The notes below the pieces were generated by a model. That model searched no databases and was not told the DNA's origin. It saw only the letters and a program-made list of their open reading frames with translations. Below are positions 844-61,696 of a stretch of DNA of 64,000 nt, in pieces. The first letter of the stretch is position 1, and every line of letters begins with the position of its first letter. This DNA is from Methanobacteriota archaeon. GTDB taxonomy: Archaea > Methanobacteriota > Methanobacteria > Methanobacteriales > Methanobacteriaceae. A program made the translations under genes and the position numbers. The stretch lies in contig CAWBCJ010000029.1 in the NCBI GenBank assembly GCA_963787255.1, forward strand, positions 704,001-768,000. Reading direction: 5' to 3'.

Positions 844-867
844 TTAATATAACACTAGTTATATTAA
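844..867. promoter_or_regulatory. Palindromic operator TTAATATAAC-acta-GTTATATTAA upstream of the HTH regulator
   Basis: Perfect 10-bp inverted arms; core TAAC-N4-GTTA at 850-861 matches motif repeated upstream of sulfur genes. Confidence 0.75.
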
Positions 868-966
868 TTCAATTTAAAGAGTTTATTTAAATTTTACAAA
901 TTCAGTTTAAAAGAGGGAAATAATCAATTGATAACATTTAAATTTCCAAATTATAATTAAACGGGC

Positions 967-1404
967 GTGATAGAAGTGAGACCACCATGTGAAATAGTTG
1001 TATGGTACGTAATTCCAAGTATACGGTCTGAATTGGCTAAAGAATTACTTAATTTAGGTATGAAACAAAAACAAATTTCTGAACTGCTGGATATTACTCA
1101 ACCTGCAGTATCACAGTATATAAGTGATAAAAGGGGACACGGAATTAAATTTGATGAAAATACTCAAAACATGATCAAAACTTTTGCAAGAGATTTAATG
1201 GAACAAAATCTGGAACAAGGGAGATGTAATACGCGAATATGTGAGATATGCAAGCACGTTAAAGCAGAAGAGGTTGTATGTCAACTGCATAAAGAAAAAG
1301 ATAACATTCCTGCAGGTTGTAATGCATGTATGGGATCAAAAAGGAATATAGATACCTGGATTACTGTATCTAATGGGTTCTTTTCTATTTATCCTCTAAA
1401 TTGA
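967..1404 (+). CDS. Cys-rich HTH transcriptional regulator (COG2522-like); true stop may be 1373 (..DYCI*) if the 3' end is frameshifted
   Basis: PPCE N-terminus, XRE-like HTH (MKQKQISELLDITQPAVSQYI), C-terminal CEIC..CQLH..CNAC cluster. Confidence 0.8.
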   Translation: MIEVRPPCEIVVWYVIPSIRSELAKELLNLGMKQKQISELLDITQPAVSQYISDKRGHGIKFDENTQNMIKTFARDLMEQNLEQGRCNTRICEICKHVKAEEVVCQLHKEKDNIPAGCNACMGSKRNIDTWITVSNGFFSIYPLN

Positions 1405-2768
1405 TGCCTAATATCTCTTAATCTGCTTCTTATTTCATCTGCAAGCTCATAATTCTTATTTTCACGGAGCTTTTCCCTTACATCAACCAGAATATTGACT
1501 AATTCATCATTGCGAATCTCCTTTGCAGGATTCAACTGAAAAATTAAGTCCCAAAATATCTCCGAATTCATTAAGTAATTCTTTTATTTCTTTAAATACA
1601 TTTTTAGAGATATTTTCTTCACTTATTCCTTTATTTATTTCTCTTATGAAATTAAAAAGTGCTGAAAGTGCAATAGGTGTATTAAAATCATTATCCATTG
1701 CATCCAAGAATTCATTTTTGGTATTTTCCAGCATTTTAAGGTATTCATTATTAGAATCACTATTTTTAGTTATATCCATTTCAAGGAATTCATCAACAGT
1801 TTCCATTAATTTATAAATTCTTTTCAAGCTATTCTGTGACTGCTGTAGAGCTTCATCGCTGAAGTCAATTGGACTTCTGTAATGAGTGGAAAGAACAAAA
1901 AATCTAAAGACCTGCGGGTCATATTCAGTGAGTAATTCTTCAATTGTAATAAAATTTCCAAGTGATTTGGACATTTTCTCCCCGCTGACATTTAAAAAGC
2001 CCGTATGCATCCAGTATTTAACCATTGGCTTTTTACCTGTTGCAGATTCCATCTGCGCGATTTCTGCCTCATGATGCGGGAAAATAAGATCTAATCCTCC
2101 ACCGTGAATGTCAAATTGGCCTCCAAAATAGGTTTCAGATATTGCAGTGTCTTCAATGTGCCATCCCGGTCTTCCATCGTCCCCATGGAGAAGCCCATGA
2201 TGGTTTGTCATCTCTCTTTTTCCAGAGTGCAAAATCTCCAGGATTTCTTTTTGTAGTATCTGGATTAACTCGATGAACATTTAGGTCTTCAATATTTCTA
2301 TTTGAGAGCTTTCCAAAGTCTTCAAAACGAGATTCATCAAAATAAATGCCAGTTGGAGGTTTCATAGGCAAAACTTTTCTTTATCAATGTTTGAATTTGA
2401 TTAATAATTTCGTTAAGGTGTTCCAGTGCCCTTGCATAATAATTAACGTTAGTTACACCTAATAATTCCATATCATGGAAATAGAGTTCTTCAAATTCCT
2501 TAGCAAGTTTTAATGGTTCAACACCAAGTTCATTTGCTCTTTTAATGATTTTATCGTCAATATCAGTGATATTTTGTAAATAAAAAATGCTGTACCCTTT
2601 ATATTTTAGATATCTTGCAATAATATCAAAAGCAATATAGGTTCTTCCATGACCAATATGTGATTTATCGTAAACTGTTGGCCCACATACAAACATTTTT
2701 ATTCTGTTTTCGTTTATAGGCGTGAATTCTTCCTTTTTACGGGTCATTGTATTGTATACTTTTATCAT
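1385..2768 (-). CDS. cysS: Cysteine--tRNA ligase, split by about four frameshifts
   Basis: Consecutive ORFs give CGPTVYD..HIGH, DFALWK, SPWG..GRPGWHIE, DIHGGGLDLIFPHHE, KMSKS, ADEIR..L; restored frame ends GINLEDK* at 1385. Confidence 0.92.
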
Positions 2769-3031
2769 AGGGCATCAAACTCGAAATTACTTAGAATTTC
2801 TTAAATTTGTTATAATCATCTTATATATGAAAATTAATATTGAAGTTGGATTTATATTCTTGTATTTTTAAAAGATGGTCAATTTTTATAATAAACTACA
2901 TTTGTTCAGTTTTTAAGATAAGATTTATTATAATAGATTATAATTAAATTAATTTAGAAAAATATCTAATTATTATTGATTATTTTCTCCTTCTGCAGCG
3001 AACAAACGAATTTTGTGAGCGAGGACTTTTT

Positions 3032-3065
3032 TGATCAATCCTTTTTTTCAAGGAAAAAAGGTTGA
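3032..3065. repeat. Hairpin element TGATCAA(T)CCTTT..AAAGGTTGA abutting the tRNA 3' end
   Basis: Inverted repeat; a related copy lies at 6408-6429 on the opposite strand. Confidence 0.55.
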
Positions 3066-3066
3066 G

Positions 3067-3137
3067 GGCCGAGATTGGGATTTGAACCCAAGTATCATGG
3101 TTTGCAGCCATGCACCTCGCCTCTCGGTCATCTCGGC
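3067..3137 (-). tRNA. tRNA-Cys(GCA), intronless, CCA not encoded
   Basis: GCCGAGA/TCTCGGC acceptor stem, ACC/GGT D stem, CATGG-CTGCAAA-CCATG anticodon arm, TTGGG-TTCAAAT-CCCAA T arm. Confidence 0.93.
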
Positions 3138-3167
3138 AAATATATTTAATTGCGTTAGTTACTAAGT

Positions 3168-3185
3168 TAACAATTGTTATATAAA
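3168..3185 (-). promoter_or_regulatory. tRNA-Cys promoter: TATA box (TTTATATA) with operator TAACAATTGTTA immediately downstream
   Basis: Perfect 12-bp palindrome at 3168-3179 overlapping the downstream edge of the minus-strand TATA box at 3178-3185. Confidence 0.75.
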
Positions 3186-3332
3186 TACTTTGCTCCACTT
3201 GATCATTATTGTGTAACTTATCATAGATTTATTTTTAGATAATACTGTATTTACAAGAATGTTAGATAAAAACGGTTTTTAATTGTAGAAACATCACTCG
3301 TAAACTTTAAATAAGAAGAAAGTAGTTAAATA

Positions 3333-3350
3333 TTATAACAATTGTTATAA
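3333..3350. promoter_or_regulatory. Perfect 18-bp palindromic operator TTATAACAATTGTTATAA upstream of metY
   Basis: Exact palindrome about 20 bp downstream of TTTAAATA (3306-3313), i.e. near the expected transcription start. Confidence 0.8.
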
Positions 3351-3502
3351 AAAATATGTTTATAAATTTTCATAGATTCAAACTTGAAATACTTATTTAC
3401 ATCTTCAAATACAAAATTGGGCAGTATAGAGCGATTTTAGGCTTCATTTAGAATCTATAGGTTATAGAATGCCAATAAAAACAAATTTATTGGAGGAATT
3501 AA

Positions 3503-4810
3503 ATGACAGAAGAAAAAAAGAAAGAATATGGATTAAGCACACTTGGATTACACGTAGGACAGGAAGAAGCATGCCCTGCAACAGGAGCAAGGGCAGTACC
3601 TATCTACCAAACATCATCATATGTTTTCAATGATGCAGAACATGCGGCAAATCTTTTTGCCTTAAAAGAATTTGGGAATATTTACACCCGTATAATGAAC
3701 CCTACAAATGATGTTTTTGAAAAAAGAATAGCTGCAGTTGAGGGAGGAAATGGAGCTTTAGCAGTGGCTTCTGGTCAAGCTGCAAACACCTATGCATTGT
3801 TAAACCTCAGTTTACCCGGTGATGAAATAGTTTCTGCAAATAACCTTTATGGTGGAACATATCAATTATTTAATTACACTTTTCCAGAATTAGGGCGAAA
3901 AGTGAATTTTGTAGAATCAACTGATCTTAAGGCAATTAAAAATGCAATTACAGACAAAACAAAAGCAATTTTCGCTGAATCAATAGGTAACCCTAAGTTA
4001 GATATACCTGATTACAAAGGAATAGCAGAAATTGCTCATAATGCAGGAATTCCTTTTGTAGTTGATAATACAACAGGAGTAGGGCTTGTAAAACCTATAG
4101 AACACGGAGCAGATATAACAACACTTTCTGCAACAAAATTCATTGGAGGACATGGTACATCCATTGGCGGGGTAATTGTTGATTCTGGAAACTTTAATTG
4201 GGGTAATGGTAATTTCCCTATTTTAACTGACCCTGATCCAAGTTATCATGGCCTAAAATTCTGGGAAACATTCGGAGATTTCCCGGGACTTGGAAATGTT
4301 GCTTACATAATGAGAGCAAGAGTAAGGCTCCTTCGTGACATGGGGGCAGCTTTAAGTCCTTTCAATGGGTTCCTATTTTTACAGGGACTTGAAACACTGG
4401 ATTTAAGAGTTAAGAAACATTCAGAAAATGCATTTGAAGTTGCAAAATTCTTAAAAGATCACCCTTCAGTAAATTGGGTAACTTATCCCGGATTTGAAGA
4501 TGATCCGGCCCATGAACTAGCTTCTAAATATTTAAACGGAGGATACGGGGCTTTAATAGGATTTGGTATCAGAGGCGGACTTGAAGCCGGTAAAAAGTTC
4601 ATTGAAAATACTGAACTCTTATCCCATCTTGCAAACATTGGAGATGCAAAGAGTCTGGTTATTCACCCTGCTTCAACAACGCATCAACAGTTAACTCCCG
4701 AGCAACAGGCAGAAACAGGAGTTACAGAAGACTTTGTAAGGCTTTCCATTGGTCTTGAAAACGTTGAAGATATAATTGCAGATATAGATCAGGCATTATC
4801 TAAAATATAA
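3503..4810 (+). CDS. metY: O-acetylhomoserine/O-acetylserine sulfhydrylase
   Basis: [23 protein letters not shown]-lysine motif [41 protein letters not shown]. Confidence 0.95.
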
Positions 4811-4881
4811 CTGAAAAATTTTGATAGTCCAAAAATCTAATAATAAAACTGGACATATCCAATATTATGGGATTTAGAAAA

Positions 4882-6351
4882 ATGAAAAAGGAATCAGTTG
4901 GACTCGCTAAAACGCAGTACTATAATCTTTCTGAGGATTTAACACTGGAAGGTGGAGGTAAGCTTAAAGAAGCTACAATAGCCTATGAAACCTACGGTAA
5001 ATTAAATAAGGAAAAAAGTAATGCGATTTTAATCTGTCATGCGCTTTCGGGAGATGCTCACGTTGCTGGATGGCACGATGGAGACCGAAAACCCGGCTGG
5101 TGGGACAGTATAATCGGTCCCGGAAAATGTCTGGATACAGATAAGTATTTTATAATCTGTTCCAATGTTATTGGGGGCTGTAAAGGTTCTACTGGCCCTT
5201 CTTCAACTAATCCTGAAACTAATGAACCATATGGGCTTGATTTTCCAATTATAACCATTTCGGACATGGTTGATGCCCAAAAGAAGTTAATTGATCACCT
5301 TTCTATAAAACAGCTCTTTGCAATTGTGGGCGGATCAATGGGAGGAATGCAGGTACTTCAATGGTGCGTTTCTTATCCAGATATGGTAAAATTAGCTATT
5401 CCTATAGCTACGGCAGCTAATTCTGCCCCACAACAAATTGCTTTTAATGAAGTAGGTAGAAGGGCAATTATATCTGATCCAAAATGGAATGGTGGTTCTT
5501 ATTACTCTGGAGAAGTTCCTAAGGAGGGATTAGGCCTTGCCAGGATGATAGGGCATATTACATACCTTAGTTATGAGTCAATGTACCAGAAGTTCGGTAG
5601 AAGACTTCAGGATAAGGAAAAATACAGTTTTGACTTTTCACTTGATTTTCAGGTGGAAAGCTATCTCCACTATCAGGGAGAATCCTTTGTTAAAAGATTC
5701 GATGCTAATTCATATCTCTACATAACAAAAGCAATAGATTATTTCGACCTTACAAAGAATGGGTCTCTTTCTGAAGGATTTGAAGATGTAGGGGCAAAAT
5801 TCCTGGTTATTTCAGTGGATTCTGACTGGCTTTACCCTCCAGCACAATCAAAAGAGATTGTAATGGCATTAACAGCAAATAACATAGATGTAAGCTATCA
5901 TGAGCTTAAATCTCCCTACGGGCATGATGCGTTCCTTCTAGAAGAGGGCCAATTAAATTACATTGTAAGTGGATTTCTCTCAGATATTCTCGTAGGGGAC
6001 GTAATGGCAACCGAAGTAACTAAAATCGGTGAAGAATCAAGTATGGATGAAGCAGCAAGGCTTATGCTTGAAAATAAAGTCACTCATTTACCTGTAGTTT
6101 CAGATGGTGATAAATTAATAGGAATTGTGACTGCATGGGATATTTCAAAGGCTGTTGCCTTAAAATGCAGTAAATTAGACGAAATAATGACGAAAGGAGT
6201 CATAGTGTCTAAACCTGACGACCAAATAGAAAAAGCAGCAGAGAAGATGAAAAAATACAATATTTCCTCCCTTCCTGTTGTGGATGATAATCAAAAAGTT
6301 ATTGGAATTATAACAACTGATCACATAAGCACGCTAATAACACGAGACTAA
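4882..6351 (+). CDS. metX: Homoserine O-acetyltransferase with C-terminal CBS pair
   Basis: [14 protein letters not shown] nucleophile, DWLYP, GHDAFL; C-terminal ~120 aa with two CBS repeats (HLPVV..GIVT; SLPVV..GIIT). Confidence 0.93.
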
Positions 6352-6395
6352 TGGAAAAAACTTATCATAATTAATGTTCATATTAAAATTAAGAA

Positions 6396-6454
6396 TTTAT
6401 GAGGATGCAACCTTTGGAAAGGTTGATCATTCATAAAGATTGATCATCCATAAA
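6396..6454. repeat. Hairpin CAACCTTT-GG-AAAGGTTG with extended stem, plus 15-bp direct repeat TTGATCATYCATAAA
   Basis: Inverted repeat 6408-6425; direct repeats 6423-6437 and 6440-6454. Confidence 0.55.
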
Positions 6455-6506
6455 ATTCGTTTATATATTAATTTACAGTAAAAAAAATAATTTATGAGGT
6501 GAAATA

Positions 6507-7679
6507 ATGATTTATATGGATCATTCAGCTACATCACCAGTTGATCCTAAAGTTTTTGAAGCAATGAAGCCTTATTTTGTGGAAGAATTTGGAAATGCTT
6601 CTACATTATACTCTCTTGGAAGAGATGCAAGAAAAGCAATGGAAAATGCAAGAGCACAGGTTGCTTCACTTATAGGAGCAAAAACTGAAGAAATTATTTT
6701 TACAAGTGGTGGAACAGAATCTGATAACATCGCCATTAAAGGTACAGCTTACAGATTAAAAGATAAAGGAAATCATATAGTAACAAGTGCTATAGAGCAC
6801 CCTGCAGTTGAAGAAACGTGTATATATTTAGAGAAAAATGGTTTTGAGGTCACATATCTTCCTGTTTACGAAGAAGGGATTGTTAGGGTATCTGATTTAG
6901 AAGATGCAATAACTGATAAAACTATTTTAATCACAATCATGCATGCAAACAACGAAATTGGTACAATCCAGCCAATAGCAGAAATTGGTAAAATAGCAAG
7001 GGAAAAAAAGATTTATTTCCACACAGATGCAGTACAGACTGTTGGAAAAATACCGGTAGTTGTTGAAGAATTAAATGTGGACATGCTTTCACTTTCAGCA
7101 CATAAAGTTTATGGCCCAAAGGGAATAGGTGCACTTTACGTTAAAAAAGGAGTTAGATTAGAGCCTATTGTCCACGGCGGTGGCCATGAAAAGGGTTTAA
7201 GGCCTGGAACAGAAAATGTATCAGGAATTGTTGGTCTAGGTAAAGCATGTGAAATTGCAGAAAAAAACCTCACCGATAATGCGAAATATATAACAAATTT
7301 GAGGAACAAATTAATAAAAGGAGTACTGGATTCGGTAGAACAATCTTATCTAAATGGACATCCCACAATGAGACTACCTAATAATGTAAACTTCAGATTT
7401 ACAGGTATCGAAGGTGAATCGCTGGTATTACACCTTGATTCTAAAGGAATAGCAGGTTCAACTGGTTCTGCATGTTCTTCAAAGAAATTAGAGCCATCAC
7501 ACGTTTTAACAGCAATTGGTCTGAAGGAAGTTGACGCTCATGGATCACTGCGTCTAACACTTGGAAAAGACAACACTGAAGAAGATGTTGAACATGCGAT
7601 AAAATCAATTCAAGAAGTGGTTGAAACCCTTAGAAAACTCTCTCCTCTCTGGTGTGCGGTGCCAGATACAAAAACATGA
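6507..7679 (+). CDS. iscS: Cysteine desulfurase (IscS/NifS type)
   Basis: IYMDHSAT, FTSGGTESDN, SAHKVYGPKG (PLP Lys), RPGTEN, STGSACSS (group I catalytic Cys). Confidence 0.95.
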   Translation: MIYMDHSATSPVDPKVFEAMKPYFVEEFGNASTLYSLGRDARKAMENARAQVASLIGAKTEEIIFTSGGTESDNIAIKGTAYRLKDKGNHIVTSAIEHPAVEETCIYLEKNGFEVTYLPVYEEGIVRVSDLEDAITDKTILITIMHANNEIGTIQPIAEIGKIAREKKIYFHTDAVQTVGKIPVVVEELNVDMLSLSAHKVYGPKGIGALYVKKGVRLEPIVHGGGHEKGLRPGTENVSGIVGLGKACEIAEKNLTDNAKYITNLRNKLIKGVLDSVEQSYLNGHPTMRLPNNVNFRFTGIEGESLVLHLDSKGIAGSTGSACSSKKLEPSHVLTAIGLKEVDAHGSLRLTLGKDNTEEDVEHAIKSIQEVVETLRKLSPLWCAVPDTKT

Positions 7680-7716
7680 AAATAAAGTTAATTTATGTGT
7701 ATTAGAGGTTGATTAT

Positions 7717-8127
7717 ATGTATAGTGATAAAGTAATGGAACATTTTCAAAACCCCCGGAATGTTGGCGAAATAGAAGATGCAGACGGTGTTGGAACAGTA
7801 GGAAACCCAACATGTGGAGATCTGATGACGATCTACATTAAAGTAAAAGACGACGTAATTGAAGATATTAAATTTAAAACCTTCGGCTGCGGCGCAGCCA
7901 TTGCAACAAGCAGTATGGTAACTGAAATGGCAATGGGAAAAACAGTAGATGAAGCCTTAAAAATCACAAGAAACGATGTCGCAGATAAACTGGAAGGGCT
8001 TCCACCAGTTAAAATGCACTGTTCTAACCTTGCAGCCGATGCATTACATGCTGCAATTGATAATTACAGGGGAAATAAAGGGGAAAAGACAGAAAAGCAT
8101 ATCTGTACAACGTGCGAAGAAGAATAA
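7717..8127 (+). CDS. iscU: Fe-S cluster scaffold IscU/NifU-like
   Basis: MYSDKVMEHFQNPRNVG, GNPTCGD, FGCGAAIA, LPPVKMHCS; GAGGT RBS before ATG at 7717. Confidence 0.95.
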   Translation: MYSDKVMEHFQNPRNVGEIEDADGVGTVGNPTCGDLMTIYIKVKDDVIEDIKFKTFGCGAAIATSSMVTEMAMGKTVDEALKITRNDVADKLEGLPPVKMHCSNLAADALHAAIDNYRGNKGEKTEKHICTTCEEE

Positions 8128-8142
8128 ATTCTTTTTTATAAT

Positions 8143-8580
8143 TTAAATTAATTCTATTTTATCTCCTTTTTTTATATTCCCGCTTTTAATTACTCTTGCA
8201 AATATGCCTTCTTTTGGCATTATGCAATCTCCAGCTTGATGATAGATTGCACAACGTGTATGGCACTCTTTACCAATTTGAGTAACTTCAAGAATTACTT
8301 CTTCTCCTACAAGTAGCTTTGTGCCTATTGGTAAAGCAGTTAGATCAATTCTTTCAGTAGTTAGATTTTCTGCAAAATCTCCAGGATTAACATTTAAGCC
8401 CATTTCACGCATTTTATCAATACTTTCTATTGCAAGTAAACTAATCTGTCTATGAGTGCTGGAATCTGCATGAGCATCGCCATCGATGCCGTAATTTTCT
8501 TCAATAACCGCCTTTTCAACGTTGTTTTTTTTAACTTGTTTTCTATCACTTGTAGAAATTGCTATTATTTTTGCAGTCAT
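8143..8580 (-). CDS. MOSC-domain protein
   Basis: GIDGDAHA, RQISLL, PGDFAENLT, EVTQIGKECH..CAIY..GDCIMPKEGIFARV. Confidence 0.85.
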   Translation of the reverse strand: MTAKIIAISTSDRKQVKKNNVEKAVIEENYGIDGDAHADSSTHRQISLLAIESIDKMREMGLNVNPGDFAENLTTERIDLTALPIGTKLLVGEEVILEVTQIGKECHTRCAIYHQAGDCIMPKEGIFARVIKSGNIKKGDKIELI

Positions 8581-8646
8581 AATATCTTTTTTTAAAATAA
8601 GAGTAAAATAGAAAAAAGAAGTAGGCATTGAATCCTTTCTTGTGTA

Positions 8647-9462
8647 TTATTTAGCTATTGCAGCTTCGCTGGTTTTAACTTTGCTGTTTTTAAGTTTCTC
8701 TATAATTAATTCAGCAACCTTTTCACCAGAAAGAAGCATTCCTCCGAAGGTAGGGCCCATTCTTGGCTGGCCGTAGGCGGTTGCAACTGACATTCCAGTC
8801 ACATAGAGTCCGGGGAAGATTTCTTTTGTATGTTCAACGATGGCATCTTCTGATTTTTCAACCCACATTCCGCCGAATCCTTTGATATCTACAAGCCCAC
8901 GCTCTTCTAAAGATTTTACAACAACTGCATCATGACCAGTTGCATCAATTACAATTTTTGACTCGATTGCAACGGGATCTACACATGTTATGGCTCTTGG
9001 AAGTGCAGATACTGGTGTCCAGTTCATAACAATACCATTTACGTGTTCATCTCTTAAAACGACGTCGTCGAATTTTGTCATATTAATTACTTTCGCACCT
9101 GCGTCCAGTGCGCTTGCTATGAGTTTTGAACATGCGTGAGGTCCGTCTGTGACATATAATCCGTCTTTTACTTTTTTGTATGGTACACCAATTTCGTCTA
9201 ATATCTTTTGACCTGGTTCTCTTACAGTTAGTTTGTTCATGAGGTAACCGCCTATCCAGAAACCTCCGCCTAGATAATTGTTGCTTTCTATAAGGAGTGT
9301 TTTTACGCCTGCTTCGCCGAGTTTTTTTGCAGCTACAAGTCCGCTGGGGCCTGCTCCAACGATAATTACGTCACTTTCTATATATTCTATAAATTCGTTT
9401 GCAAATCCTTCAACAATGGCTTTTGTCACATCTTTTTCTGATATCTTTGAAAAAATTTTCAT
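8647..9462 (-). CDS. thi4: Thiazole synthase Thi4 (Cys-type active site)
   Basis: [42 protein letters not shown]. Confidence 0.92.
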
Positions 9463-9484
9463 AGTTAATCCTCGTCAATTTACT

Positions 9485-9518
9485 TAACAATAGTTATATA
9501 ACAATTGTTACTTATAAA
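9485..9518 (-). promoter_or_regulatory. Tandem operators TAACAATAGTTA (9485-9496) and TAACAATTGTTA (9499-9510) directly downstream of the thi4 TATA box
   Basis: Two copies at 14-bp spacing; minus-strand TTTATAAG at 9511-9518. Confidence 0.8.
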
Positions 9519-9591: not shown

Positions 9592-10743
9592 TTATTTCGC
9601 TCTGGTTTTAATGGATGAAACAACTTCTTCAACCTTTTCTTCAAAATCAATATCTTCTAGAACATCTAAAAACTGTTCTAGATCTGCATTGGTTTCAGGA
9701 TATTTTGGAACTGCTGTACATCCTGGCGCTGGAAGAATTGATATTTCGAAGGTACCTATTTTTTTACCTATATTTTCAATTTCAATCTTATCCATACCAA
9801 TTAAAGGACTTAAAACAGGCATTTTGGTAACGTACCTTGTAGCAAGTAAATTAGGGAGTGTTTGGGAAGCTACCTGTCCTAAACTACTTCCATCAATAAT
9901 TGCAAGTGCTTCTTCCTTTTTAGCAATTTCTTCTGCTATACGGTACATTCCACTTTTACATAGGACGCAGGTAAGGCGAACAGGCGCATCTTCAACGCAT
10001 GATTTTAGATAATCTCCATAATCTGCCTCCAAAAACTTCAATTTTGATGGAGCGTATTCTGAGAGTTTTTCAATGATCTTAAGAACCTTTGCATTTGACC
10101 CTCCGGTGTAGGGATAGTTGTTAAAATGAAGAACTATGACTTCACATCCTCTTTTCATCATTAAAAAGGCAGATACAGGGGAATCAATACCTCCAGAAAC
10201 TAGAGCTATCACTTTTCCCTGAGTTCCCACTGGAAGGCCTCCAATTCCCTGTATTTTTTCATGGAAAATGTAAGTTTTATTTTCCCTTACCTCCACAAAG
10301 AATTTAAAATCAGGTTTACTTAAATTAACAGGAGCACCTGTTTTTTTAACGATTACTGAGCCGCAGAATCCGGCCATCTCCTGACTTGTAAATTCATGAG
10401 TTCCTACTCTTCTCCCACGCACTGCAAATGATTTAGTTCCATCAAATAATCCTTCAGAAATTAGATCATCAACATATTTGTTTAAAGTTTCTTCTATACT
10501 ATCAAAATCAGTTTCAGTAGAAACTGCAGGGCTGTATGAAACTACACCGATTGCCTTACTTAAAGCAGCATTTGCTTCTTTAAAATTCTTTGGAAATAAA
10601 AATATCCTTCCCTGATTAATCTCTATTTTGCAGTCAAGCTTTTTTTTAATGTTAGAAATGAGCTTATTTTCAAATCTACGCCTTACTTTTGGGCTTTTAA
10701 CTCCAATTTCTCCGTATCTTACAATTATTAAATCATAATCCAT
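9592..10743 (-). CDS. thiI: tRNA 4-thiouridine synthase ThiI (THUMP + PP-loop, no rhodanese domain)
   Basis: IVRYGEIGVKS, GGLPVGTQGK, SGGIDSPV, CVLC, SLGQVASQT, distal GCTAVP (three-Cys methanogen type). Confidence 0.93.
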   Translation of the reverse strand: MDYDLIIVRYGEIGVKSPKVRRRFENKLISNIKKKLDCKIEINQGRIFLFPKNFKEANAALSKAIGVVSYSPAVSTETDFDSIEETLNKYVDDLISEGLFDGTKSFAVRGRRVGTHEFTSQEMAGFCGSVIVKKTGAPVNLSKPDFKFFVEVRENKTYIFHEKIQGIGGLPVGTQGKVIALVSGGIDSPVSAFLMMKRGCEVIVLHFNNYPYTGGSNAKVLKIIEKLSEYAPSKLKFLEADYGDYLKSCVEDAPVRLTCVLCKSGMYRIAEEIAKKEEALAIIDGSSLGQVASQTLPNLLATRYVTKMPVLSPLIGMDKIEIENIGKKIGTFEISILPAPGCTAVPKYPETNADLEQFLDVLEDIDFEEKVEEVVSSIKTRAK

Positions 10744-10976
10744 TTAAATTTCTCCTTTGGATTTTTTAAAATTTCATTTATTTAATTTAACGATTTACTT
10801 TTTAGTTCGTAATATTCCATTTATTTTAGTAAAATGATGAAATGAGCATTAAAAATGTTATTGATATTATTAGTCAAATTTATGTGTTATATCTTGTAAA
10901 TAGTTGATATTTTTTGGGGGTAAATAAAAAAATAATAAGTAAAGGTTAATAACTTTTTAACCTTTTAGAATTGATT

Positions 10977-12110
10977 TTAAGCCCTCGAAAGTCCTTTGCT
11001 CAGGTCTTCAATTAAATCAGCAGAATCTTCCAGTCCAACGGAAAGCCTGATAAGGTCATCTGTAATTCCTGCACTTTTTCGAGCTTCTTCTTTCATTGAA
11101 GCGTGGCTCATTGTTGCGGCGTGTTCAACAAGTGAATCTGCTCCACCTAATGACTCCGCAAGGGAGAATATTTCTAAACTGTTTAGGAAATTTCTCAAAT
11201 CACCTTTGAGTTTAAATGATACTATTCCTCCAAATCCTTTCATCTGTTTTTTAGCTATTTCATGTCCTTTATGGGATGTAAGGCCGGGATAAAATACTTC
11301 ACTTACTTTAGGGTGTTCTAGTAGATATTCTGCTACTTCGTGAGCATTTGTGGCATGTTTGTCCATTCTAAGGGGGAGTGTTTTTAAACCTCTAAGCACT
11401 AACCATGAATCAAATGGTGCTGCATTTGTTCCAAGTCCGTTAAGGTTGAAATGAACTTTTTCTGCTAATTCTTCTGTTGTTGTTATTACAGCGCCGCCAA
11501 TAACATCTGAATGTCCGTTTATGTATTTAGTTGTTGAATGCATTACAATGTCGATTCCAAAGTCAATTGGCTTTAAAAAGTAGGGACTGGAGAATGTATT
11601 GTCGGTTACAGTAAGTAAATTGTGCTCTTTTGCGATTTTTGAGATTAACGCAAGGTCTGTAATGTTTAGAAGTGGATTTGAAGGTGTTTCTACCCATATG
11701 AGTTTAGTATTGGATTTTATTGCATTCTTTATTTTTTCCTCATCGTCAAGTCTTATAAATGTGAATTCAATTCCAAATTTGGTCATTATTTCTGAAAATA
11801 ACCTGAAAGTACCTCCGTAAAGGTCATCACATGCAATTACGTGATCACCAGCTTTTAGAATATGTATTACGGTTGTAATTGCGGCCATTCCACTTGAAAA
11901 TGCAAATCCTGCGTTTCCTCCTTCAAGATCTGCAAGGGCATCTTCCAGGGCGCTTCTTGTAGGATTACTTGTTCTTGAATAATCGTGCTTTTTGGGTTTT
12001 CTATAGTCATCAAAGATGAATGTTGACGTTTGCCAGATTGGTGTTGATATTGCACCGGTTGCAGGGCACGGCTGCCTGCCTGAGTGCACTGATTTTGTAT
12101 TAAACTTCAT
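10977..12110 (-). CDS. Cystathionine gamma-synthase/gamma-lyase family PLP enzyme
   Basis: YSRTSNPT, FSSGMAAI, ETPSNP, DNTF, HSTTKYINGHSDV, AESLGG, RLSVGLE. Confidence 0.9.
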   Translation of the reverse strand: MKFNTKSVHSGRQPCPATGAISTPIWQTSTFIFDDYRKPKKHDYSRTSNPTRSALEDALADLEGGNAGFAFSSGMAAITTVIHILKAGDHVIACDDLYGGTFRLFSEIMTKFGIEFTFIRLDDEEKIKNAIKSNTKLIWVETPSNPLLNITDLALISKIAKEHNLLTVTDNTFSSPYFLKPIDFGIDIVMHSTTKYINGHSDVIGGAVITTTEELAEKVHFNLNGLGTNAAPFDSWLVLRGLKTLPLRMDKHATNAHEVAEYLLEHPKVSEVFYPGLTSHKGHEIAKKQMKGFGGIVSFKLKGDLRNFLNSLEIFSLAESLGGADSLVEHAATMSHASMKEEARKSAGITDDLIRLSVGLEDSADLIEDLSKGLSRA

Positions 12111-12201
12111 ATTTTCCTCCTTATTCTATAAACATTAAGATTCAACTTTTAAAAAATTCGTATTTAACTCCTGTGGATTTTAAAAAAGCAACATGTTATA
12201 T

Positions 12202-12227
12202 TAACAATTGTTATATAACTATTGTTA
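12202..12227. promoter_or_regulatory. Tandem operators TAACAATTGTTA and TAACTATTGTTA upstream of the transsulfuration gene
   Basis: Copies at 12202-12213 and 12216-12227, same 14-bp spacing as at thi4; partial third copy at ~12189-12199. Confidence 0.8.
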
Positions 12228-12261
12228 TATGTTTTTCGGTTTTTAAACTCTAAATTAAATT

Positions 12262-53303: not shown

Positions 53304-53323
53304 TATATAAAATTTGTTATATA
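53304..53323. promoter_or_regulatory. Degenerate operator copy TATA-TAAAATTTGTTA-TATA between comA and the divergent gene
   Basis: One arm mismatch to TAAC-N4-GTTA; overlaps TATA-like sequence. Confidence 0.4.
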
Positions 53324-53383
53324 TCTTAGAATATATATTAAAACGGATAATTAAATCCACCTAAAAATTTATCTGGTGATTAA

Positions 53384-55319: not shown

Positions 55320-55511
55320 TTAAATATTAATTATGAGAAACACCACTGATTTTCTCTAACTTGCTTAGTTTTAGTTATCTATAAAAAATGAAAAGGTTTA
55401 TAAATTCATAAATAAAATAAACTATTATCATTTATATAGAATAATTAGTAAATATATTATTCTCAAATAATTTAATAACTTATTCTTTAATGAATTTAAG
55501 TAGGTATTTTT

Positions 55512-55697
55512 ATGAATTTGAATAAGGAAACTACCTCCCAGTTTATAAGACAGTGCAGGAGAGTTCTGCACGTATCTAAAAAGCCAGATAGAGAAGAATT
55601 TATAAATGTAGCAAAAATAACGGGAATTGGAATTATTATAATAGGCGTTATAGGCTTTATAATAAGTCTAATTGCTCAACTGTTAGGTATGGTATAA
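55512..55697 (+). CDS. secE: Protein translocase SecE/Sec61-gamma
   Basis: RRVL..SKKPDREEF + single TM helix; conserved position. Confidence 0.92.
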   Translation: MNLNKETTSQFIRQCRRVLHVSKKPDREEFINVAKITGIGIIIIGVIGFIISLIAQLLGMV

Positions 55698-55742
55698 TTT
55701 TCATTAATTTACTGCTTTATAGCCCGTTAGGTAAGTGATAAT

Positions 55743-56186
55743 TTGATATATGCATTAAGAACCCTTGTAGGACAGGAAAAAAACGTTGCAAGATTGCTTT
55801 CAAGAAATGTCAAAAACAGTGATATTGAAGTTACTTCAATACTTGTTCCAGACAATTTAAGAGGTTACATTTTAGTTGAATCTTCATCTAAAATTGACAT
55901 GCAAGATCCTGCTTTTAAAGTTCCAAATCTAAGGGGATCAGTGGAAGGTGAAATAACCTTCGAAGAGATTAAAAGCTTTTTAAATCCAGAGCCTATTATA
56001 GCTTCTGTTAAAAAAGGAAGTATTATAGAGCTTATATCTGGTCCTTTTAAAGGTGAAAGGGCTAAAGTAGTTAGAATAGATGAATCCAAGGAAGAAGTAG
56101 TTTTAGAGCTAATCGAAGCTGCAATTCCGATCCCAGTTACGGTCAAAGGTGACCAAATAAGATTAATTCAGAAGGAGGCAGATTAA
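55743..56186 (+). CDS. spt5: Transcription elongation factor Spt5/NusG
   Basis: GQEKNVA, GYILVE, KOW GPFKGE.A.V. Confidence 0.93.
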
Positions 56187-56665
56187 TGGCTAAAGAGACA
56201 GTGGAGATTCTCATTGAAGGCGGAAAAGCAACACCAGGACCACCATTAGGCCCTGCAATTGGACCGCTTGGTATTAACATGATGCAAGTTGTAGAGCAAA
56301 TAAACAGCAAAACTTCAGATTTTGCAGGTATTAAAGTTCCAGTAAAAGTCATCGTAGATGTGGGGACAAAAGAATTTGAAGTTGAAGTAGGTACACCTCC
56401 AACAACTGCACTTATATTAGATGAACTAAATATTGAAAAAGGTTCTCAAGATCCTGGACTAGACAAAGTTGCTGATCTATCCATAGAGCAGACACTTAAA
56501 ATCGCCAGGATGAAATTCGATTCACTACTTTCAAACGATTATAAAATGGCTGCTAAAGAAGTTATTGGAACATGCGTGAGCATGGGCTTAACTGTAGATG
56601 GCAAAGACCCTAAAATCGTGCAGAAAGAAATTAGTGAAGGCGTATACGACGAACAATTACAATAA
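56186..56665 (+). CDS. rpl11: 50S ribosomal protein L11
   Basis: [23 protein letters not shown]. Confidence 0.97.
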
Positions 56666-56752
56666 AATTTTATAAATAAATTAAAATCAATCCATTTGAT
56701 CAAAAATCAATTATTGTGAACTTTTAACCAAAAAAGTTCATGGAGGAATTTG

Positions 56753-57391
56753 ATGAATCAAGAGATATTGGAAGCAGTGAAGAAGGCGAAAGAGGAATCC
56801 AAGCCGAGAAACTTCACACAGTCTATAGATGTTGTTATAAACATCAAAGATTTAGACGTGAAAAAGCCAGAGAACAGAATAGATGAAGAAGTCTTCCTTC
56901 CAAATGGACGTGGTAAAGGCATAAAAATTGCCTTTATAGCAGATGGTGAACTGGGAATTCAGGCAAAAAATGCCGGTGCAGATCTTGTAATAACCAAAGA
57001 GAATTTAGAAGACTTTGGAAAAGACAGGAAAGCAGCCAAAAAAATGGCTAACGAATACACATTTTTCGTTGCACAGGCAGATATGATGCCGCAAGTAGGT
57101 AGATTTTTAGGACCCGTTCTTGGACCTAGAAAAAAGATGCCAAAACCAGTTCCAGCATCCGTAAAACCAGATCCTATAATGGAAAGACTCAACAATACAG
57201 TAAAAGTAAGAATAAAGGATCAGCCAGTTATCCAGGCAATTGTTGGTTCCCAGGATATGGAGGACGAGCAAATTGCAGATAATGTTGAAGCTGTGCTTGG
57301 AATATTGGACAGAAAACTGGAGAAAGGAAGAAACCAGATAAAATCCATGTACATTAAAACTACCATGGGTCCAGTAGCGAGGGTGATTTAA
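56753..57391 (+). CDS. rpl1: 50S ribosomal protein L1
   Basis: [24 protein letters not shown]. Confidence 0.97.
56777..56817 (+). promoter_or_regulatory. L1 autoregulatory mRNA binding site within the rpl1 coding sequence
   Basis: GTGAAG-aa-GGC..GCC-gagaaa-CTTCAC two-helix structure ~25 nt after the start codon, resembling the Methanococcales L1 mRNA target. Confidence 0.7.
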
Positions 57392-58398
57392 TGGCTCATG
57401 TTGCTGAATGGAAAAGAGAAGAGGTCAATGACCTTAAAGAACTTATAAAAAGTCACAGTGTAGTGGGTATGGCCAATCTGGCAGATATACCAGCTCCTCA
57501 ACTCCAGAAAATGAGAAGAAACTTAAAGGATACTACAACCATTAAAATGTCAAGAAAGACATTAATGAGCTTGGCTTTAGGCGAATCTGAAAAAGATAAT
57601 ATAGTTGCACTTGGTGAACATATGGAAGGTCAGCCAGCATTGATCTTTACAAACATGAACCCATTTAAGCTCTATAAAATTCTTGAAGATAGTAAAACAG
57701 CCGCGCCTGCAAAAGCAGGAAGTATAGCTCCTTCAGATATTGTAGTGCCTAAAGGTGACACTTCATTTAAACCAGGTCCTATTCTTGGAGAGCTTCAAAA
57801 AGTCGGTATTCCTGCTAAAATTGATAAAGGAAAAATTGTTATAACCAAGGATAAGGTAATTGTTGCTGAAGGGGAAGCAGTTCCTCGAAATGTGGCAGGT
57901 ATTCTTACAAGGCTTGAAATTGAGCCAATGGAAGTTGGAATTGACTTAGTAGCAGCTTATGAAGACCAGACAGTGTATACATCTGACCTTTTAACTATAG
58001 ATGAAGAGAAAACATTATCTGACATACAGAAAGCGTTCTCTCAAGCACTGAATCTATCAGTAAATGCATCTATATACACTAAAGAAGCTATGCCGCTTAT
58101 TATACAGAATGCTGCAATTAAAGCAATGAATCTTGCATTAAATGCAGAAATACTCACATCAAAAACAACAGATTTACTGTTATCCAAGGCTTACTCACAG
58201 ATGTTAGCATTAGCATCTGATTTATCATCAGTAGATGAAAAAGCACTTGATGATGAACTTCTGGATAAACTGAAATCACGCCCACAGGCGGTTGAAGTTA
58301 AAGCGGAAGATAAAGAAGACGAAGAAGAAGACGAAGAAGAAGACGAAGAAGATAAAGAAGAAGATGCAGCAGCAGGGCTAGGCGCCTTGTTCGGCTAA
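57391..58398 (+). CDS. rplP0: 50S ribosomal protein L10 (P0)
   Basis: [21 protein letters not shown], acidic tail ending GLGALFG. Confidence 0.97.
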
Positions 58399-58435
58399 AC
58401 TTTATTAAATATTTTTAAAATTTGAGGTGATCATA

Positions 58436-58741
58436 ATGGAATATATATACGCAGCAATGTTATTGCACACAACAGGTCAGGAAATTAACGAAGAAAATGT
58501 AACAAAGGTTTTAGAAGCAGCAGGAGCAGAAGCAGACGATGCAAGAGTAAAAGCATTAATCGCAGCACTTGAAGATGTGGACATCGAAGAAGCAATGGAG
58601 AAAACCGCAGTAGCAGCAGCAGCTCCAGCAGCAGCAGCTCCAGCAGCAGAAGAAAAACCTGAAGAGGAAGAGGAAGAGGAAGAAGACGAGGAAGAAAAAG
58701 AAGAAGAAGCCGCAGCAGGTCTCGGCGCACTCTTCGGATAA
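58436..58741 (+). CDS. rpl12: 50S ribosomal protein L12 (P1)
   Basis: [11 protein letters not shown], Ala-rich hinge, acidic tail GLGALFG. Confidence 0.97.
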
Positions 58742-58751
58742 TTCCGATTCG

Positions 58752-58790
58752 AAGCCAAGAAATTGGCTTTCCTTACTATTTTTTTTATTT
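58752..58790 (+). terminator. Hairpin plus oligo-T after rpl12
   Basis: AAGCCA..TGGCTT stem followed by a T-run. Confidence 0.5.
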
Positions 58791-58833
58791 TAATTATAAT
58801 TTTAAAATTTAATAACTTTTATCACTGATTACT

Positions 58834-61539
58834 ATGTCTAACCAGCTTGAAGAACTTGGATATACTAAAAAAACATGTATTACTTGTGGAAACGATTTCT
58901 GGTCTATTGGAGATAGAAAAACTTGTGGTGACGCCCCATGCGATGAATATGAATTCATTGGGAATCCTGCAACAAGTAAAAAATATGACCTTTATGAAAT
59001 TCAGAAGACTTTCATGGAATTTTTTGCCGAAAAAGGCCACACACCAATAAAAAGATATCCTGTTCTTGCAAAAAGATGGAGAGACGACGTTTTTTTAGTA
59101 GGCGCATCAATTTACGATTTTCAACCATGGGTCACATCAGGAGCAGTAGATCCTCCTGCAAACCCATTAGTAATCGCACAACCATCAATTAGACTTAATG
59201 ATGTGGATAATGTCGGAAGGACCGGCAGGCACATGACTTGTTTTACAATGGGTGGACATCACGCATTTAATTCTCCTAAAGAACAAATTTACTGGGAAGA
59301 TGAAACAGTAAAATACTGTCATGACTTTATTAAACACATTGGAATCAACCCAGAAGAAATTACTTACATTGAATCATGGTGGGAAGGCGGAGGAAACGCA
59401 GGTCCCTGTTATGAAATTTGTGTTAGAGGGGTAGAATTAGCAACACTTGTTTTTATAAAATACAAAACACTTCCTGGCGGAAAACTTGAAGAAATCCCTC
59501 TTACGATTGTTGACACTGGATACGGGCTTGAAAGATTTGCTTGGATATCGCAGGGAACTCCAACAGCTTATGATGCTTCATTTGGTCCAGTAATAAATGA
59601 ATTAAAGGATTTATCTGGTATTGAAGTGAATGAAAGCATTCTTGCTGAAAACGCCCAGGTAGCTGGAATGATGGACATTGAAACTTTCGCAGACTTAAGA
59701 GAGTTAAGGAAAAAGGTTGCTGAAAGGCTTAATATAACACTTGATGAACTTGAAGAAGCTACAAAGCCAATGGAAGCAATATATGTAATTGCAGACCATA
59801 CAAGATGTCTGGCATTTATGCTTGCAGATGGTGTAATTCCATCCAACGTTAAAGAAGGATATCTGGCAAGACTCGTTTTAAGAAGAACAATTCGTTTCAT
59901 AAAAGACTTAGGATTAGAAGAATCATTAGCAGATATGATGAAAATACAGCTTGATTTCTTATCAAAAACTTATCCTGAAATTAAGCATCATCAAGATCAT
60001 ATACTTAATATTATCAATTTAGAAGATAAGAGATACCTTAAAACAGTTTCAAAGGGCAGAAAACTTGTAAAAACGACAATAAAACAGCTTAAAAAACAGA
60101 ATAAAGATGAAATACCTCTTGAAACACTTATAAAACTTTATGATTCTCATGGAATCCCTCCAGAAACCATTAATGAGATTGCAGCAGAAAACAATTTCAA
60201 AGCAGAAGTTCCTGATAATTTTTATACATTAGTTGCAAATGAGCATGCAGAAGAAGTTCAAGAAGAAAAAGAGGAAATAAAGCTTAATTTTCCCCTTACA
60301 GATTTATTATTCTATGAAAAGCCTTATGATACACAATTTGAAGCTCATGTAATTGGAACTTATGAAAATAACGTTATATTGGACCAGACTATTTTCTATC
60401 CTGAAGGAGGAGGGCAGCCGTCAGATATTGGATTCCTTTCCATTCGCGGTGAAAAAATAAAGGTTCTTCATGCTGAAAAGATAAATAATATTGTTTTACA
60501 CAAGGTAAACGAAGAAGATATTGAAAAAGTGCACCCTTATAAAGGCCAGATAATAAATGGGCAAATTGATCTTAGAAGGCGCCAGGCTCTTACTAGGAAC
60601 CATACTGCAACTCATTTAATAATTGCTGCTGCAAGAAAGGTTTTAGGCGACCATGTATGGCAGGCAGGGGCTCAAAAAGGTGTTAAAAGGTCAAGAATTG
60701 ATATTTCCCATTACAAACGGATAAAACCTGAAGAACTTCAGGAGATTGAACTTCTTGCAAATAGATATGTTATGGAAAATCGCAGTGTGCTTACTAACTG
60801 GATGGCCAGGGCAGAAGCCGAGAAAAAATATGGATTTATCCTTTACCAGGGCGGAGTAGTTCCAGGAATGTCTATAAGAACAGTAAAAATTGAAGATGTT
60901 GATGTGCAGGCCTGTGCAGGAACACATTGTTCAATGACGGGAGATATTGGGCTTATTAAGATTACCAAAACTGAAAGAATTCAGGACGGGGTGGAAAGGA
61001 TTGAATTTTCAGCGGGCGAAGCCGCAATTGAGGCTGCTCAGTCTAAAGATAATCTTTTAAAAGAAAGCGCCGCAGTTTTCAAGGTTGAACCAGAACAGCT
61101 CCCTAAAACCTGTGATAGATTCTTCAGTGAGTGGAAATCATTTAAAAATGAAATAAATAGACTTAAGGGTCAGATAGCAACATTAAAGATGAAAACTTTA
61201 ATGGGCAAATCCGAAAAAATTGGTGATCTAAATGTTTTAGAAGACATGATTGATGCAGATATAGGTGAAATGCAAAAAATGGCTTTAGACCTCACTGATG
61301 ATGACGGAGAGTTTGACGTGGTTCTTCTAGGTAATTTAGAAGGTAAAATAGTAGGAACTTCCTCTGCCCATGCAATAGAATATGGTATTAAAATTAATGA
61401 AATAATTAAAGAGGCTGCAACTATTCTTGGTGGTGGAGGTGGCGGAAGACCTAATCTTGCCCAAGGTGCGGGTCCAAAATCCGAAAAGATGAGAGAAGCA
61501 CTTGATTTTTCATTAGACAAAATTAAAGCTAAGTTCTAA
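58834..61539 (+). CDS. alaS: Alanine--tRNA ligase (archaeal type)
   Basis: N-terminal Zn motif CITC..CGDAPC, VGRTGRH, DTGYGLER, ADHTR, HTATH, CAGTH editing site, GGGGGG. Confidence 0.97.
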   Translation: MSNQLEELGYTKKTCITCGNDFWSIGDRKTCGDAPCDEYEFIGNPATSKKYDLYEIQKTFMEFFAEKGHTPIKRYPVLAKRWRDDVFLVGASIYDFQPWVTSGAVDPPANPLVIAQPSIRLNDVDNVGRTGRHMTCFTMGGHHAFNSPKEQIYWEDETVKYCHDFIKHIGINPEEITYIESWWEGGGNAGPCYEICVRGVELATLVFIKYKTLPGGKLEEIPLTIVDTGYGLERFAWISQGTPTAYDASFGPVINELKDLSGIEVNESILAENAQVAGMMDIETFADLRELRKKVAERLNITLDELEEATKPMEAIYVIADHTRCLAFMLADGVIPSNVKEGYLARLVLRRTIRFIKDLGLEESLADMMKIQLDFLSKTYPEIKHHQDHILNIINLEDKRYLKTVSKGRKLVKTTIKQLKKQNKDEIPLETLIKLYDSHGIPPETINEIAAENNFKAEVPDNFYTLVANEHAEEVQEEKEEIKLNFPLTDLLFYEKPYDTQFEAHVIGTYENNVILDQTIFYPEGGGQPSDIGFLSIRGEKIKVLHAEKINNIVLHKVNEEDIEKVHPYKGQIINGQIDLRRRQALTRNHTATHLIIAAARKVLGDHVWQAGAQKGVKRSRIDISHYKRIKPEELQEIELLANRYVMENRSVLTNWMARAEAEKKYGFILYQGGVVPGMSIRTVKIEDVDVQACAGTHCSMTGDIGLIKITKTERIQDGVERIEFSAGEAAIEAAQSKDNLLKESAAVFKVEPEQLPKTCDRFFSEWKSFKNEINRLKGQIATLKMKTLMGKSEKIGDLNVLEDMIDADIGEMQKMALDLTDDDGEFDVVLLGNLEGKIVGTSSAHAIEYGIKINEIIKEAATILGGGGGGRPNLAQGAGPKSEKMREALDFSLDKIKAKF

Positions 61540-61676
61540 TGAATTAGTTTTTTAATTTTTAAATATCATTTCTTTTTAATTCTTATTGAATTTTAATCCT
61601 TAAAATTCCTTTTTTCATGTTAATAAACTAGATATATTATGATCTAAATAAATTTAATAGATTATTAGAAAACAAG

Positions 61677-61696
61677 TTTATATAACAATAGTTATA
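61677..61696 (+). promoter_or_regulatory. TATA box overlapped by operator TATAACAATAGTTATA upstream of the marker-16 gene
   Basis: TTTATATA 61677-61684; core TAACAATAGTTA 61683-61694, identical to the copy at 9485. Confidence 0.78.

Follow-up and report, generated by a model that had tools for sequence, protein, structure and literature searches.

A palindromic operator upstream of sulfur genes in Methanobacteriaceae: a probable undescribed sulfur regulon and its candidate regulator

Are the genes for sulfur assimilation and sulfur trafficking in Methanobacteriaceae controlled together, and if so, which protein controls them? Methanogens need sulfur, as well as clusters of iron and sulfur (Fe-S clusters), in very large amounts, and the question is raised by a 64,000-nucleotide stretch of the genome of a Methanobacteriota archaeon (positions 704,001 to 768,000 of contig CAWBCJ010000029.1, assembly GCA_963787255.1; here G000:C29:704001-768000), referred to as the window, in which the palindrome TAAC-N4-GTTA recurs in front of sulfur-related genes. 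An initial annotation made from the DNA letters alone took this palindrome for the operator of a repressor and placed one copy in front of a gene for a helix-turn-helix (HTH) protein (967-1404). The analysis described here, which covers the whole assembly (2.47 Mb, 33% GC, 29 contigs) and its relatives, indicates that the palindrome probably marks an undescribed sulfur regulon run by this small neighbouring regulator. The features of the window are collected in Table 1.

An exact pattern search finds all eight core copies of the initial annotation (850-861 to 61683-61694), and the genes named there, namely tRNA-Cys, O-acetylhomoserine sulfhydrylase (metY), a Thi4-family protein, a cystathionine gamma-synthase/lyase family protein (cgs), methanogenesis marker 16, ComA and the HTH protein, are all recovered under the same identities. 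The copy at 3333-3350 is indeed a perfect 18-bp palindrome, and the copy at 53308-53319 near comA departs from the core by the single mismatch reported for it, A for C at core position 4. The consensus of the eight window copies is approximately ATATAAC-N4-GTTATAT, 16-18 bp long, with N4 being mostly AATT, AATA or TATA. Two window promoters carry pairs of copies exactly 14 bp apart (9485/9499 and 12202/12216), and the same tandem spacing is seen in at least four other genera. The exact core occurs nine times in the window compared with a mean of 1.21 in shuffled sequences, and 0 of 100 shuffles reach nine. The ninth copy, at 2444-2455, lies within the cysS coding sequence without TATA-like AT flanks and is not counted as a site; it recurs at the matching place in the cysS gene of a relative (L024, around position 3099) and probably reflects a conserved peptide, not regulation.

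The initial annotation had proposed a comparison with shuffled intergenic DNA, and the outcome is clear. In the intergenic DNA of G000 (0.50 Mb, 25% GC, as set by crude gene calls based on open reading frames (ORFs)), TAAC-N4-GTTA occurs 31 times compared with 12.3 +/- 3.5 when these segments are shuffled 200 times with their dinucleotides preserved, and the extended form TATAAC-N4-GTTATA occurs nine times compared with 0.20 +/- 0.44, the maximum in any of these shuffles being two. The extended form is absent from the 1.97 Mb of coding DNA. Chance is excluded as the source of the window copies, and the palindrome is very likely a real regulatory site.

A symmetrised 18-bp position weight matrix (PWM) seeded with the eight window sites was used for the genome-wide scan that had likewise been proposed, and gives 46 matches in G000 at a threshold of at least 12 bits. 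Sites that did not contribute to the matrix precede further sulfur genes: three copies lie upstream of cysK, one between ThiS and an alpha/beta hydrolase gene and one after ThiS, and a tandem pair precedes an operon encoding a GMC-type flavoprotein, ThiF, HdrC-like and HdrB-like proteins and an HdrA of the MvhD type (L001:6419-12855, G000:C29:691419-697855). The highest score of all, 26.1, belongs to another non-seed site, that of pdxS. Weaker matches are found before nadA, thiC, the canonical thi4, the homoserine dehydrogenase gene, the gene of an ABC-type ATPase and comA. Nearly all of the strong sites fall at 691-800 kb of C29, within or close to a sulfur island, the right part of which is covered by the window. 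The central claim of the initial annotation, that the palindrome marks sulfur-related genes, therefore stands by virtue of these independent sites and of the conservation of sites before orthologous genes.

In relatives, a perfect core within 600 bp upstream of the orthologous metY gene was scored in 26 non-self loci from 24 family genomes, leaving aside L081 (a C-terminal fragment at a contig end), and is found in 19 of them; the second copy, which serves the divergent tRNA-Cys gene, is also kept in many. The cgs gene has a site in eight of nine orthologous promoters from eight genera. Of 79 named loci from Methanobacterium, Methanobrevibacter, Methanosphaera and Methanobinarius, 59 have cysE directly upstream of the HTH gene and 52 have cysK. 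A site is found no more than 350 bp from cysK in 38, a number that is too low, since some tblastn ranges extend past the sites. Tandem sites precede a cysK–cysE–HTH unit in four genomes of four genera (G063, G103, G062 and G043), and strict sites in these genomes, which are clustered in the equivalent island, also precede metY or nifS, cgs, nadA and genes for ThiS, HdrA-like and NifX-like proteins. The tRNA-Cys gene lies within the island in all 11 loci of relatives that were scanned, either with its own operator or directly behind cysK–cysE–HTH, and an equivalent of the operator on the tRNA-Cys side is conserved in other genera. In G043, two good operator copies (L178:6874-6975) stand in the intergenic DNA that separates a convergent pair of ORFs, where no gene evidently follows them, and there may be an uncalled small gene or RNA at this place.

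The operator has further targets in relatives. These include a binding protein of the SsuA/NMT1 type with its ABC ATPase and permease, a ThiS-linked SsuA-like protein, DsrE2 with a class-V aminotransferase, IscU, MoaE, FdhD, a ThiD-like kinase, thiI and nadA. In G103 (L171:453-8026) and G063 (L167:5524-12789), the operator precedes a trio of NifD-like, NifK-like and NifH-like genes together with an ABC transporter of the SsuA/NMT1 type, beside cysK–cysE. No nitrogenase-like genes are found in G000, where the only matches are 24-29% identical.

The HTH gene is the candidate for the gene of the regulator. It is found in every one of the 24 family genomes taken as relatives and in 68 of 80 genomes across the family, representing 23 of 27 genera, and was not found in samples of two sister families (0 of 9 and 0 of 5 genomes). 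Of 21 loci from the genus of the window (g1), 19 have a site 60-120 bp upstream of the HTH gene; its half-sites are invariant and its central N4 is variable. Since the half-sites are fixed while the spacer is free to change, this is the pattern of a palindrome contacted by a protein. Outside this genus, the HTH gene is the last cistron of an operator–cysK–cysE–HTH unit. In genus g30, two tandem copies of the HTH gene, the shorter of them coding for approximately 112 residues, are found behind cysK–cysE (L167:2796-3564 in G063; also in G110 and G081).

The presence of the HTH gene goes together with the number of sites. Strict sites average 7.6 in the 68 genomes with the HTH gene and 1.0, with a maximum of two, in the 12 genomes without it; these genomes are related and hence not independent. 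When the motif pattern is read backwards as a control, the HTH-negative genomes give about one match each, so that their sites are at the control level; per-genome counts are 4-20 for the motif compared with 0-5 for the backwards control. A contrast of this kind is also seen within a single genus: 10 and 11 sites in two genomes that have the HTH gene, none in two that do not. Consistently, G044 and G049 have kept metY, no HTH gene is found in them and no site precedes their metY genes, and five sister-family genomes without the HTH gene have only 0-1 sites. There is thus a good probability that the HTH/Cys-rich protein is the one that reads the operator.

The regulator candidate matches Pfam HTH_3 at residues 24-56 with a borderline score of 23.1 bits against a cut-off of 23, and its HTH_5 (ArsR) score of 19.3 bits is below the threshold of 22. 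Neither Pfam nor NCBIfam models reveal an Rrf2, ArsR, LysR or TetR domain in it, and there is no NCBIfam model for the protein itself. HTH_3 is present in 21-68% of the members of its atlas neighbours, which come from several archaeal phyla. An exhaustive profile-free family search retrieves 1335 clusters at E <= 0.001, of which 427 reach E <= 1e-10, most of them proteins of approximately 120 residues that align end to end. A C-x2-H...C-x2-C pattern is invariant or nearly so in 47 aligned family members, and only the Methanobacteriaceae subfamily has three further cysteines, in an N-terminal PCE and a CxxC motif. A C-terminal cysteine is also usual in the closest relatives and in the family loci that were aligned. 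A confident AlphaFold model of an intact orthologue is all-helical, with a predicted local distance difference test (pLDDT) score of 85 and a predicted template modelling (pTM) score of 0.80. A fold search with this model against the PDB gives no match at E <= 0.001, the match to NsrR being insignificant (E = 2.1), and a comparison with the sequences of solved structures gives nothing meaningful (best E = 0.12). Judged from the conserved residues, sensing of a metal or an Fe-S cluster by the regulator is plausible; the four universally conserved ligands could equally hold a structural zinc.

These observations lead to a model in which the palindrome is probably the operator of a transcription factor that runs a regulon for sulfur assimilation and sulfur trafficking in Methanobacteriaceae. 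The conserved core of this regulon would consist of cysK–cysE, metY (with metX, nifS and nifU), the cgs family gene and tRNA-Cys, and a periphery that varies between lineages would include, in this genome, the thi4 paralogue with the MOSC-domain gene, thiI, ThiS, the ThiF/HdrCBA-like operon, pdxS and marker 16. A dimer of the regulator would bind each palindrome, and two dimers would sit side by side on the tandem copies spaced by 14 bp. Autoregulation of the factor is also part of the model. At 5 of 12 promoter orientations, those of the GMC-type flavoprotein (FAD) operon, tRNA-Cys, thi4, marker 16 and pdxS, the operator is fused to a TTTATA box, so that the overlap with the TATA box described in the initial annotation for tRNA-Cys, thi4 and marker 16 is real and extends to two more promoters. 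An operator between the TATA box and the start site is in the usual position for an archaeal repressor. Because the operator is fused to the TATA box or directly follows it at several promoters, the bound regulator may cover the DNA between the TATA box and the start site, and repression by the factor seems somewhat likely. As for the signal, the preferred guess is sufficiency of sulfur or of Fe-S clusters, read through the conserved cysteines; that the regulator senses sulfur or Fe-S status in this way is a tentative proposal. A broader and likewise speculative view, which we hold to be possible without favouring it, is that the protein would be the first characterisable representative of a large and so far unstudied family of archaeal regulators and would act in Methanobacteriaceae as a master repressor for sulfur status, with a metal centre held by cysteines through which it would sense sufficiency of sulfide or of Fe-S clusters. 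Such a master repressor would shut off Cys and Met synthesis, Fe-S assembly, relays of the ThiS/ThiF/DsrE type, sulfonate uptake, nitrogenase-like organosulfur enzymes and tRNA-Cys.

Several other explanations of the palindrome have to be weighed. It would be a trivial feature if it were a variant of the TATA box, produced by the composition of AT-rich promoters, or a small mobile repeat, and its TATA-like flanks, the 25% GC of the intergenic DNA and the position of several copies on TATA boxes would fit such an origin. The shuffles that preserve dinucleotides and the backwards-read control nevertheless fall below the observed counts, sites drop to the background level in genomes without the HTH gene, promoters of unrelated genes mostly lack the motif, and the same genes carry the site across genera; the copies have just 16-18 bp in common and differ in their flanks. 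This origin is hardly credible. A palindrome can also fold, so that the element might be an RNA hairpin in 5' leaders or a terminator rather than a DNA operator, and two single copies fold better than expected, with z-scores of -3.2 and -4.5. The hairpins are weak, however, at -3.0 to -5.4 kcal/mol, and the tandem copies are no better than shuffled sequences. Moreover, many copies overlap the TATA box and hence lie upstream of any transcript, copies serve either strand, the half-sites are fixed while the spacer varies, and the region has no match in Rfam. A function in RNA is therefore very unlikely, although slightly less so than a compositional origin.

The alternative that deserves more weight accepts a real sulfur-regulon operator and assigns its reading to another factor, the HTH/Cys-rich protein being merely a target or having some other role with cysK–cysE. 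The HTH gene is within the regulated operon in most genera, and both linkage and co-occurrence are expected for a mere target as well; the borderline HTH_3 match and the lack of cysK in HTH-negative genomes also fit this alternative. On the other hand, the conserved island shows no further regulator gene, an operator of its own precedes the HTH gene in genus g1, G044 and G049 keep metY while the HTH gene and the site are gone, and the contrast of 10 and 11 sites with none at all arises within one genus. Another reader of the operator is accordingly rather improbable, and the HTH/Cys-rich protein is preferred as the regulator. Several observations nonetheless weigh against its assignment. Given its place in the cysK–cysE unit, the HTH gene might simply be controlled through the operator and not encode the protein that reads it. 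No site stands directly before the HTH gene outside genus g1 (0 of 25 loci), which may be because the gene is co-transcribed there with cysK–cysE. Seven HTH-positive genomes have two or fewer strict sites, one of which, G042, has looser copies before metY. The five HTH-negative genomes that were tested also lack cysK, and therefore part of the co-occurrence reflects the loss of a whole gene block. The promoters of metY, cgs and the HTH gene show no evident geometry of operator and TATA box, and activation is therefore possible there. Finally, with cysK, cysE and cysS broken and a cysteine of the regulator lost, the circuit may be partly decayed in this genome.

The extent of the regulon is limited by observations of the same kind. 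Conservation in orthologous promoters, on which the initial annotation had staked its reading, holds for metY, cgs, cysK and tRNA-Cys, fails for comA and is weak for marker 16 and pdxS. A site is found in only 4 of 26 orthologous promoters of marker 16, a count that omits L096, L112 and L113, fragments that lack upstream DNA, as well as a paralogue in G059 for which there is no locus; L058, with just 211 bp of upstream DNA, was retained and scored as a miss. For pdxS the figure is 3 of 28. No perfect site precedes the orthologous comA gene in any of 28 cases, the one-mismatch copy recurring only in G004 of the same genus. Hence, the inclusion of coenzyme M synthesis in the regulon, as first proposed, is weak. 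The thi4 membership proposed at the same time is putative: the site in the window is real, and a site directly before the gene is rare elsewhere (one of eight for the paralogue, 2 of 13 for the canonical thi4); in G063 the paralogue belongs to a thiI–thi4–MOSC operon that has a site upstream. Moreover, pdxS and nadA are not obviously sulfur genes, nor are some targets in relatives, which include an amidohydrolase, a cyclase, an AcnX-like protein, a GATase and 5-formyltetrahydrofolate (5-FTHF) cyclo-ligase. A regulon for vitamins or pyridoxal 5'-phosphate (PLP), suggested by the pdxS, thiC, thi4 and nadA sites, was considered and set aside as the main theme because the conserved core consists of cysK, metY and cgs; the sites in question are weak or lineage-specific. 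These four genes may be peripheral members of the sulfur regulon, coding for Fe-S or sulfide-dependent enzymes or supplying PLP to PLP-dependent sulfur enzymes.

The possible decay of the circuit concerns one block of genes. The cysK gene of this genome (G000:C29:702926-703926, L001:17926-18926) has two single-base insertions, and the cysE pieces at the start of the window form the tail of an operator–cysK–cysE unit that begins outside it (G000:C29:702763-703926); in relatives, an intact cysE gene for a protein of 237 residues lies directly upstream of the HTH gene. Intact cysS orthologues of relatives code for 454-468 residues. At the 3' end of the regulator gene (1330-1404), a one-base shift replaces the conserved C-terminal ...DYCI, and the C-terminal cysteine is lost. 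The neighbouring metY, metX, nifS and nifU genes, which are in the same order in relatives, are intact. The breaks in cysK, cysE, cysS and the regulator end may be due either to real decay or to a local assembly error. An intact SepRS gene is present at C29:307059-308648 (849 bits), and a tRNA-dependent route to cysteine could therefore make CysRS, and perhaps CysK and CysE, dispensable.

The proposed regulon resembles several known systems in content and none of them in its candidate regulator. McbR, a TetR-type repressor of Corynebacterium glutamicum, coordinates through a palindromic operator the Met and Cys synthesis genes hom, metX, metY, cysK and that of a cystathionine enzyme, together with sulfonate uptake, and its effector is known. 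The content of the regulon described here is very similar; the candidate regulator, however, has no TetR domain, the promoters are of the archaeal type with TATA box and B recognition element (BRE), and tRNA-Cys and sulfur-carrier genes are included. CymR, of the Rrf2 type, governs the cysteine metabolism of Bacillus and Staphylococcus as its master repressor and is functionally tied to CysK; the candidate is genetically tied to cysK–cysE but lacks an Rrf2 domain. IscR and SufR are small HTH repressors that sense Fe-S clusters through few conserved cysteines and control genes of the iscS/iscU type. Here too nifS–nifU/iscU are among the targets and the candidate has conserved Cys and His residues, yet there is no relationship in sequence or fold. 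SurR of Thermococcales, an archaeal winged-helix protein of the ArsR type with a cysteine motif, responds to elemental sulfur and acts on genes for hydrogenase and sulfur reduction. Both systems are archaeal and use short palindromic sites with GTT/AAC arms, but the half-site spacing differs, as the initial annotation had pointed out, SurR is not a biosynthetic regulator and the HTH_5 score of the candidate is below cut-off. In Rhodospirillum rubrum, the LysR-type protein SalR controls a nitrogenase-like methylthio-alkane reductase, and sulfur limitation jointly induces nitrogenase-like genes, ABC transporters of the taurine/sulfonate type, cysE and cysK (PMC13474568). The NifD/K/H-like trio and SsuA-type transporter of G103 and G063 carry the operator in a comparable combination, whereas SalR is a bacterial activator of the LysR family.

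The initial annotation knew of no such regulon described for Methanobacteriales. In agreement with this, literature searches found no description of the motif, the regulon or the regulator, with supplements, subscription journals and regulon databases (RegPrecise among them) being outside their scope, and the words regulon, repressor and transcriptional regulator are absent from a 2021 survey of methanogen Fe/S pathways (PMC8351635). An operator, a candidate regulator and a list of targets would together open sulfur sensing and budgeting in Methanobacteriaceae to bench experiments, and if the master-repressor view is true, methanogens, those of the gut genus Methanobrevibacter included, would have their first defined transcription circuit that senses sulfur. 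The family has methanogens of the gut and rumen, for which sulfur supply is a possible control point. The regulon also gives a sulfur context to the thi4 paralogue, the MOSC protein, the paralogue of the HdrA–MvhD type with ThiF and the GMC flavoprotein, and the NifX-like proteins, as well as, in relatives, to the nitrogenase-like trio beside a sulfonate-type transporter. A tRNA gene under the operator of an amino-acid pathway is unusual.

Table 1. Operator copies and genes of the window, in window coordinates
Feature	Coordinates	Strand	Basis or remark
cysE in two pieces (25-285, 303-710)	25..710	+	Hexapep domain
Operator copy, predicted autoregulatory	847..864 (core 850-861)	.	105 nt upstream of HTH gene; PWM 21.8
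Candidate regulator, 145 aa, N-terminal HTH (XRE-like) + C-terminal Cys/His-rich domain	967..1404	+	Pfam HTH_3, translation
cysS (cysteinyl-tRNA synthetase) in three frames	1507..2768	-	Domain matches; candidate member only
tRNA-Cys (GCA), predicted target	3066..3137	-	tRNA call
Operator copy fused to TTTATATA box	3165..3182 (core 3168-3179)	.	~30 nt upstream of tRNA-Cys
Operator copy, perfect 18-bp palindrome	3333..3350 (core 3336-3347)	.	153 nt upstream of metY
Operon metY (3503-4810), metX (4867-6351), nifS/iscS (6507-7679), nifU/iscU (to 8127)	3503..8127	+	Domain matches
Operon Thi4-family paralogue (8647-9462) + MOSC-domain protein (8143-8628)	8143..9462	-	Domain matches
Tandem operators directly after TTTATAAG box	9482..9513 (cores 9485-9496, 9499-9510)	.	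22 nt upstream of thi4 paralogue
Operon cystathionine gamma-synthase/lyase family gene (10977-12110) + thiI (9592-10743)	9592..12110	-	Domain matches
Tandem operators	12199..12230 (cores 12202-12213, 12216-12227)	.	Upstream of cystathionine gamma-synthase/lyase family gene (cgs)
One-mismatch copy, doubtful member	53305..53322	.	Between comA (-) and PK_C-like gene (+); PWM 13.9
Operator copy fused to TTTATATA box	61680..61697 (core 61683-61694)	.	35 nt upstream of marker 16
Methanogenesis marker 16 metalloprotein, predicted lineage-specific target	61730..62989	+	TIGR03287, 551.6 bits

A scan for sigma-70 promoters and terminators, which is inapplicable to an archaeon and gave fewer promoter-like matches than shuffled sequences, was not used. 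Some of the putative target genes have features of their own. The canonical Thi4-family gene is located at G000:C10:156881-157666, is 44% identical to the window copy and has a one-mismatch site only. Orthologues of the window paralogue with 79-90% identity are found only in genomes that bear the island, beside thiI and a MOSC gene, and the paralogue may not be a thiazole synthase. The HdrA protein of the GMC/ThiF operon has 791 residues with a C-terminal MvhD/FlpD domain, and a second hdrA gene, for 663 residues, lies at C29:460851-462809; the GMC/ThiF/Hdr-like operon may encode a system dedicated to the reduction of disulfides or persulfides in sulfur trafficking. After ThiS, an ORF of 107 residues (L001:14644-14967, G000:C29:699644-699967) matches part of an SsuA-like protein of 302-312 residues, which in its full form is translationally coupled to ThiS in relatives. 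An operator copy (L001:15118-15135, site 700118 of G000:C29) is located in the 200-nt gap between ThiS and this fragment, a layout that suggests a rearrangement or another broken gene. Homoserine O-acetyltransferase, the MetX protein of the window, carries a C-terminal pair of CBS domains at residues ~373-490, where an adenosyl ligand may exert allosteric control.

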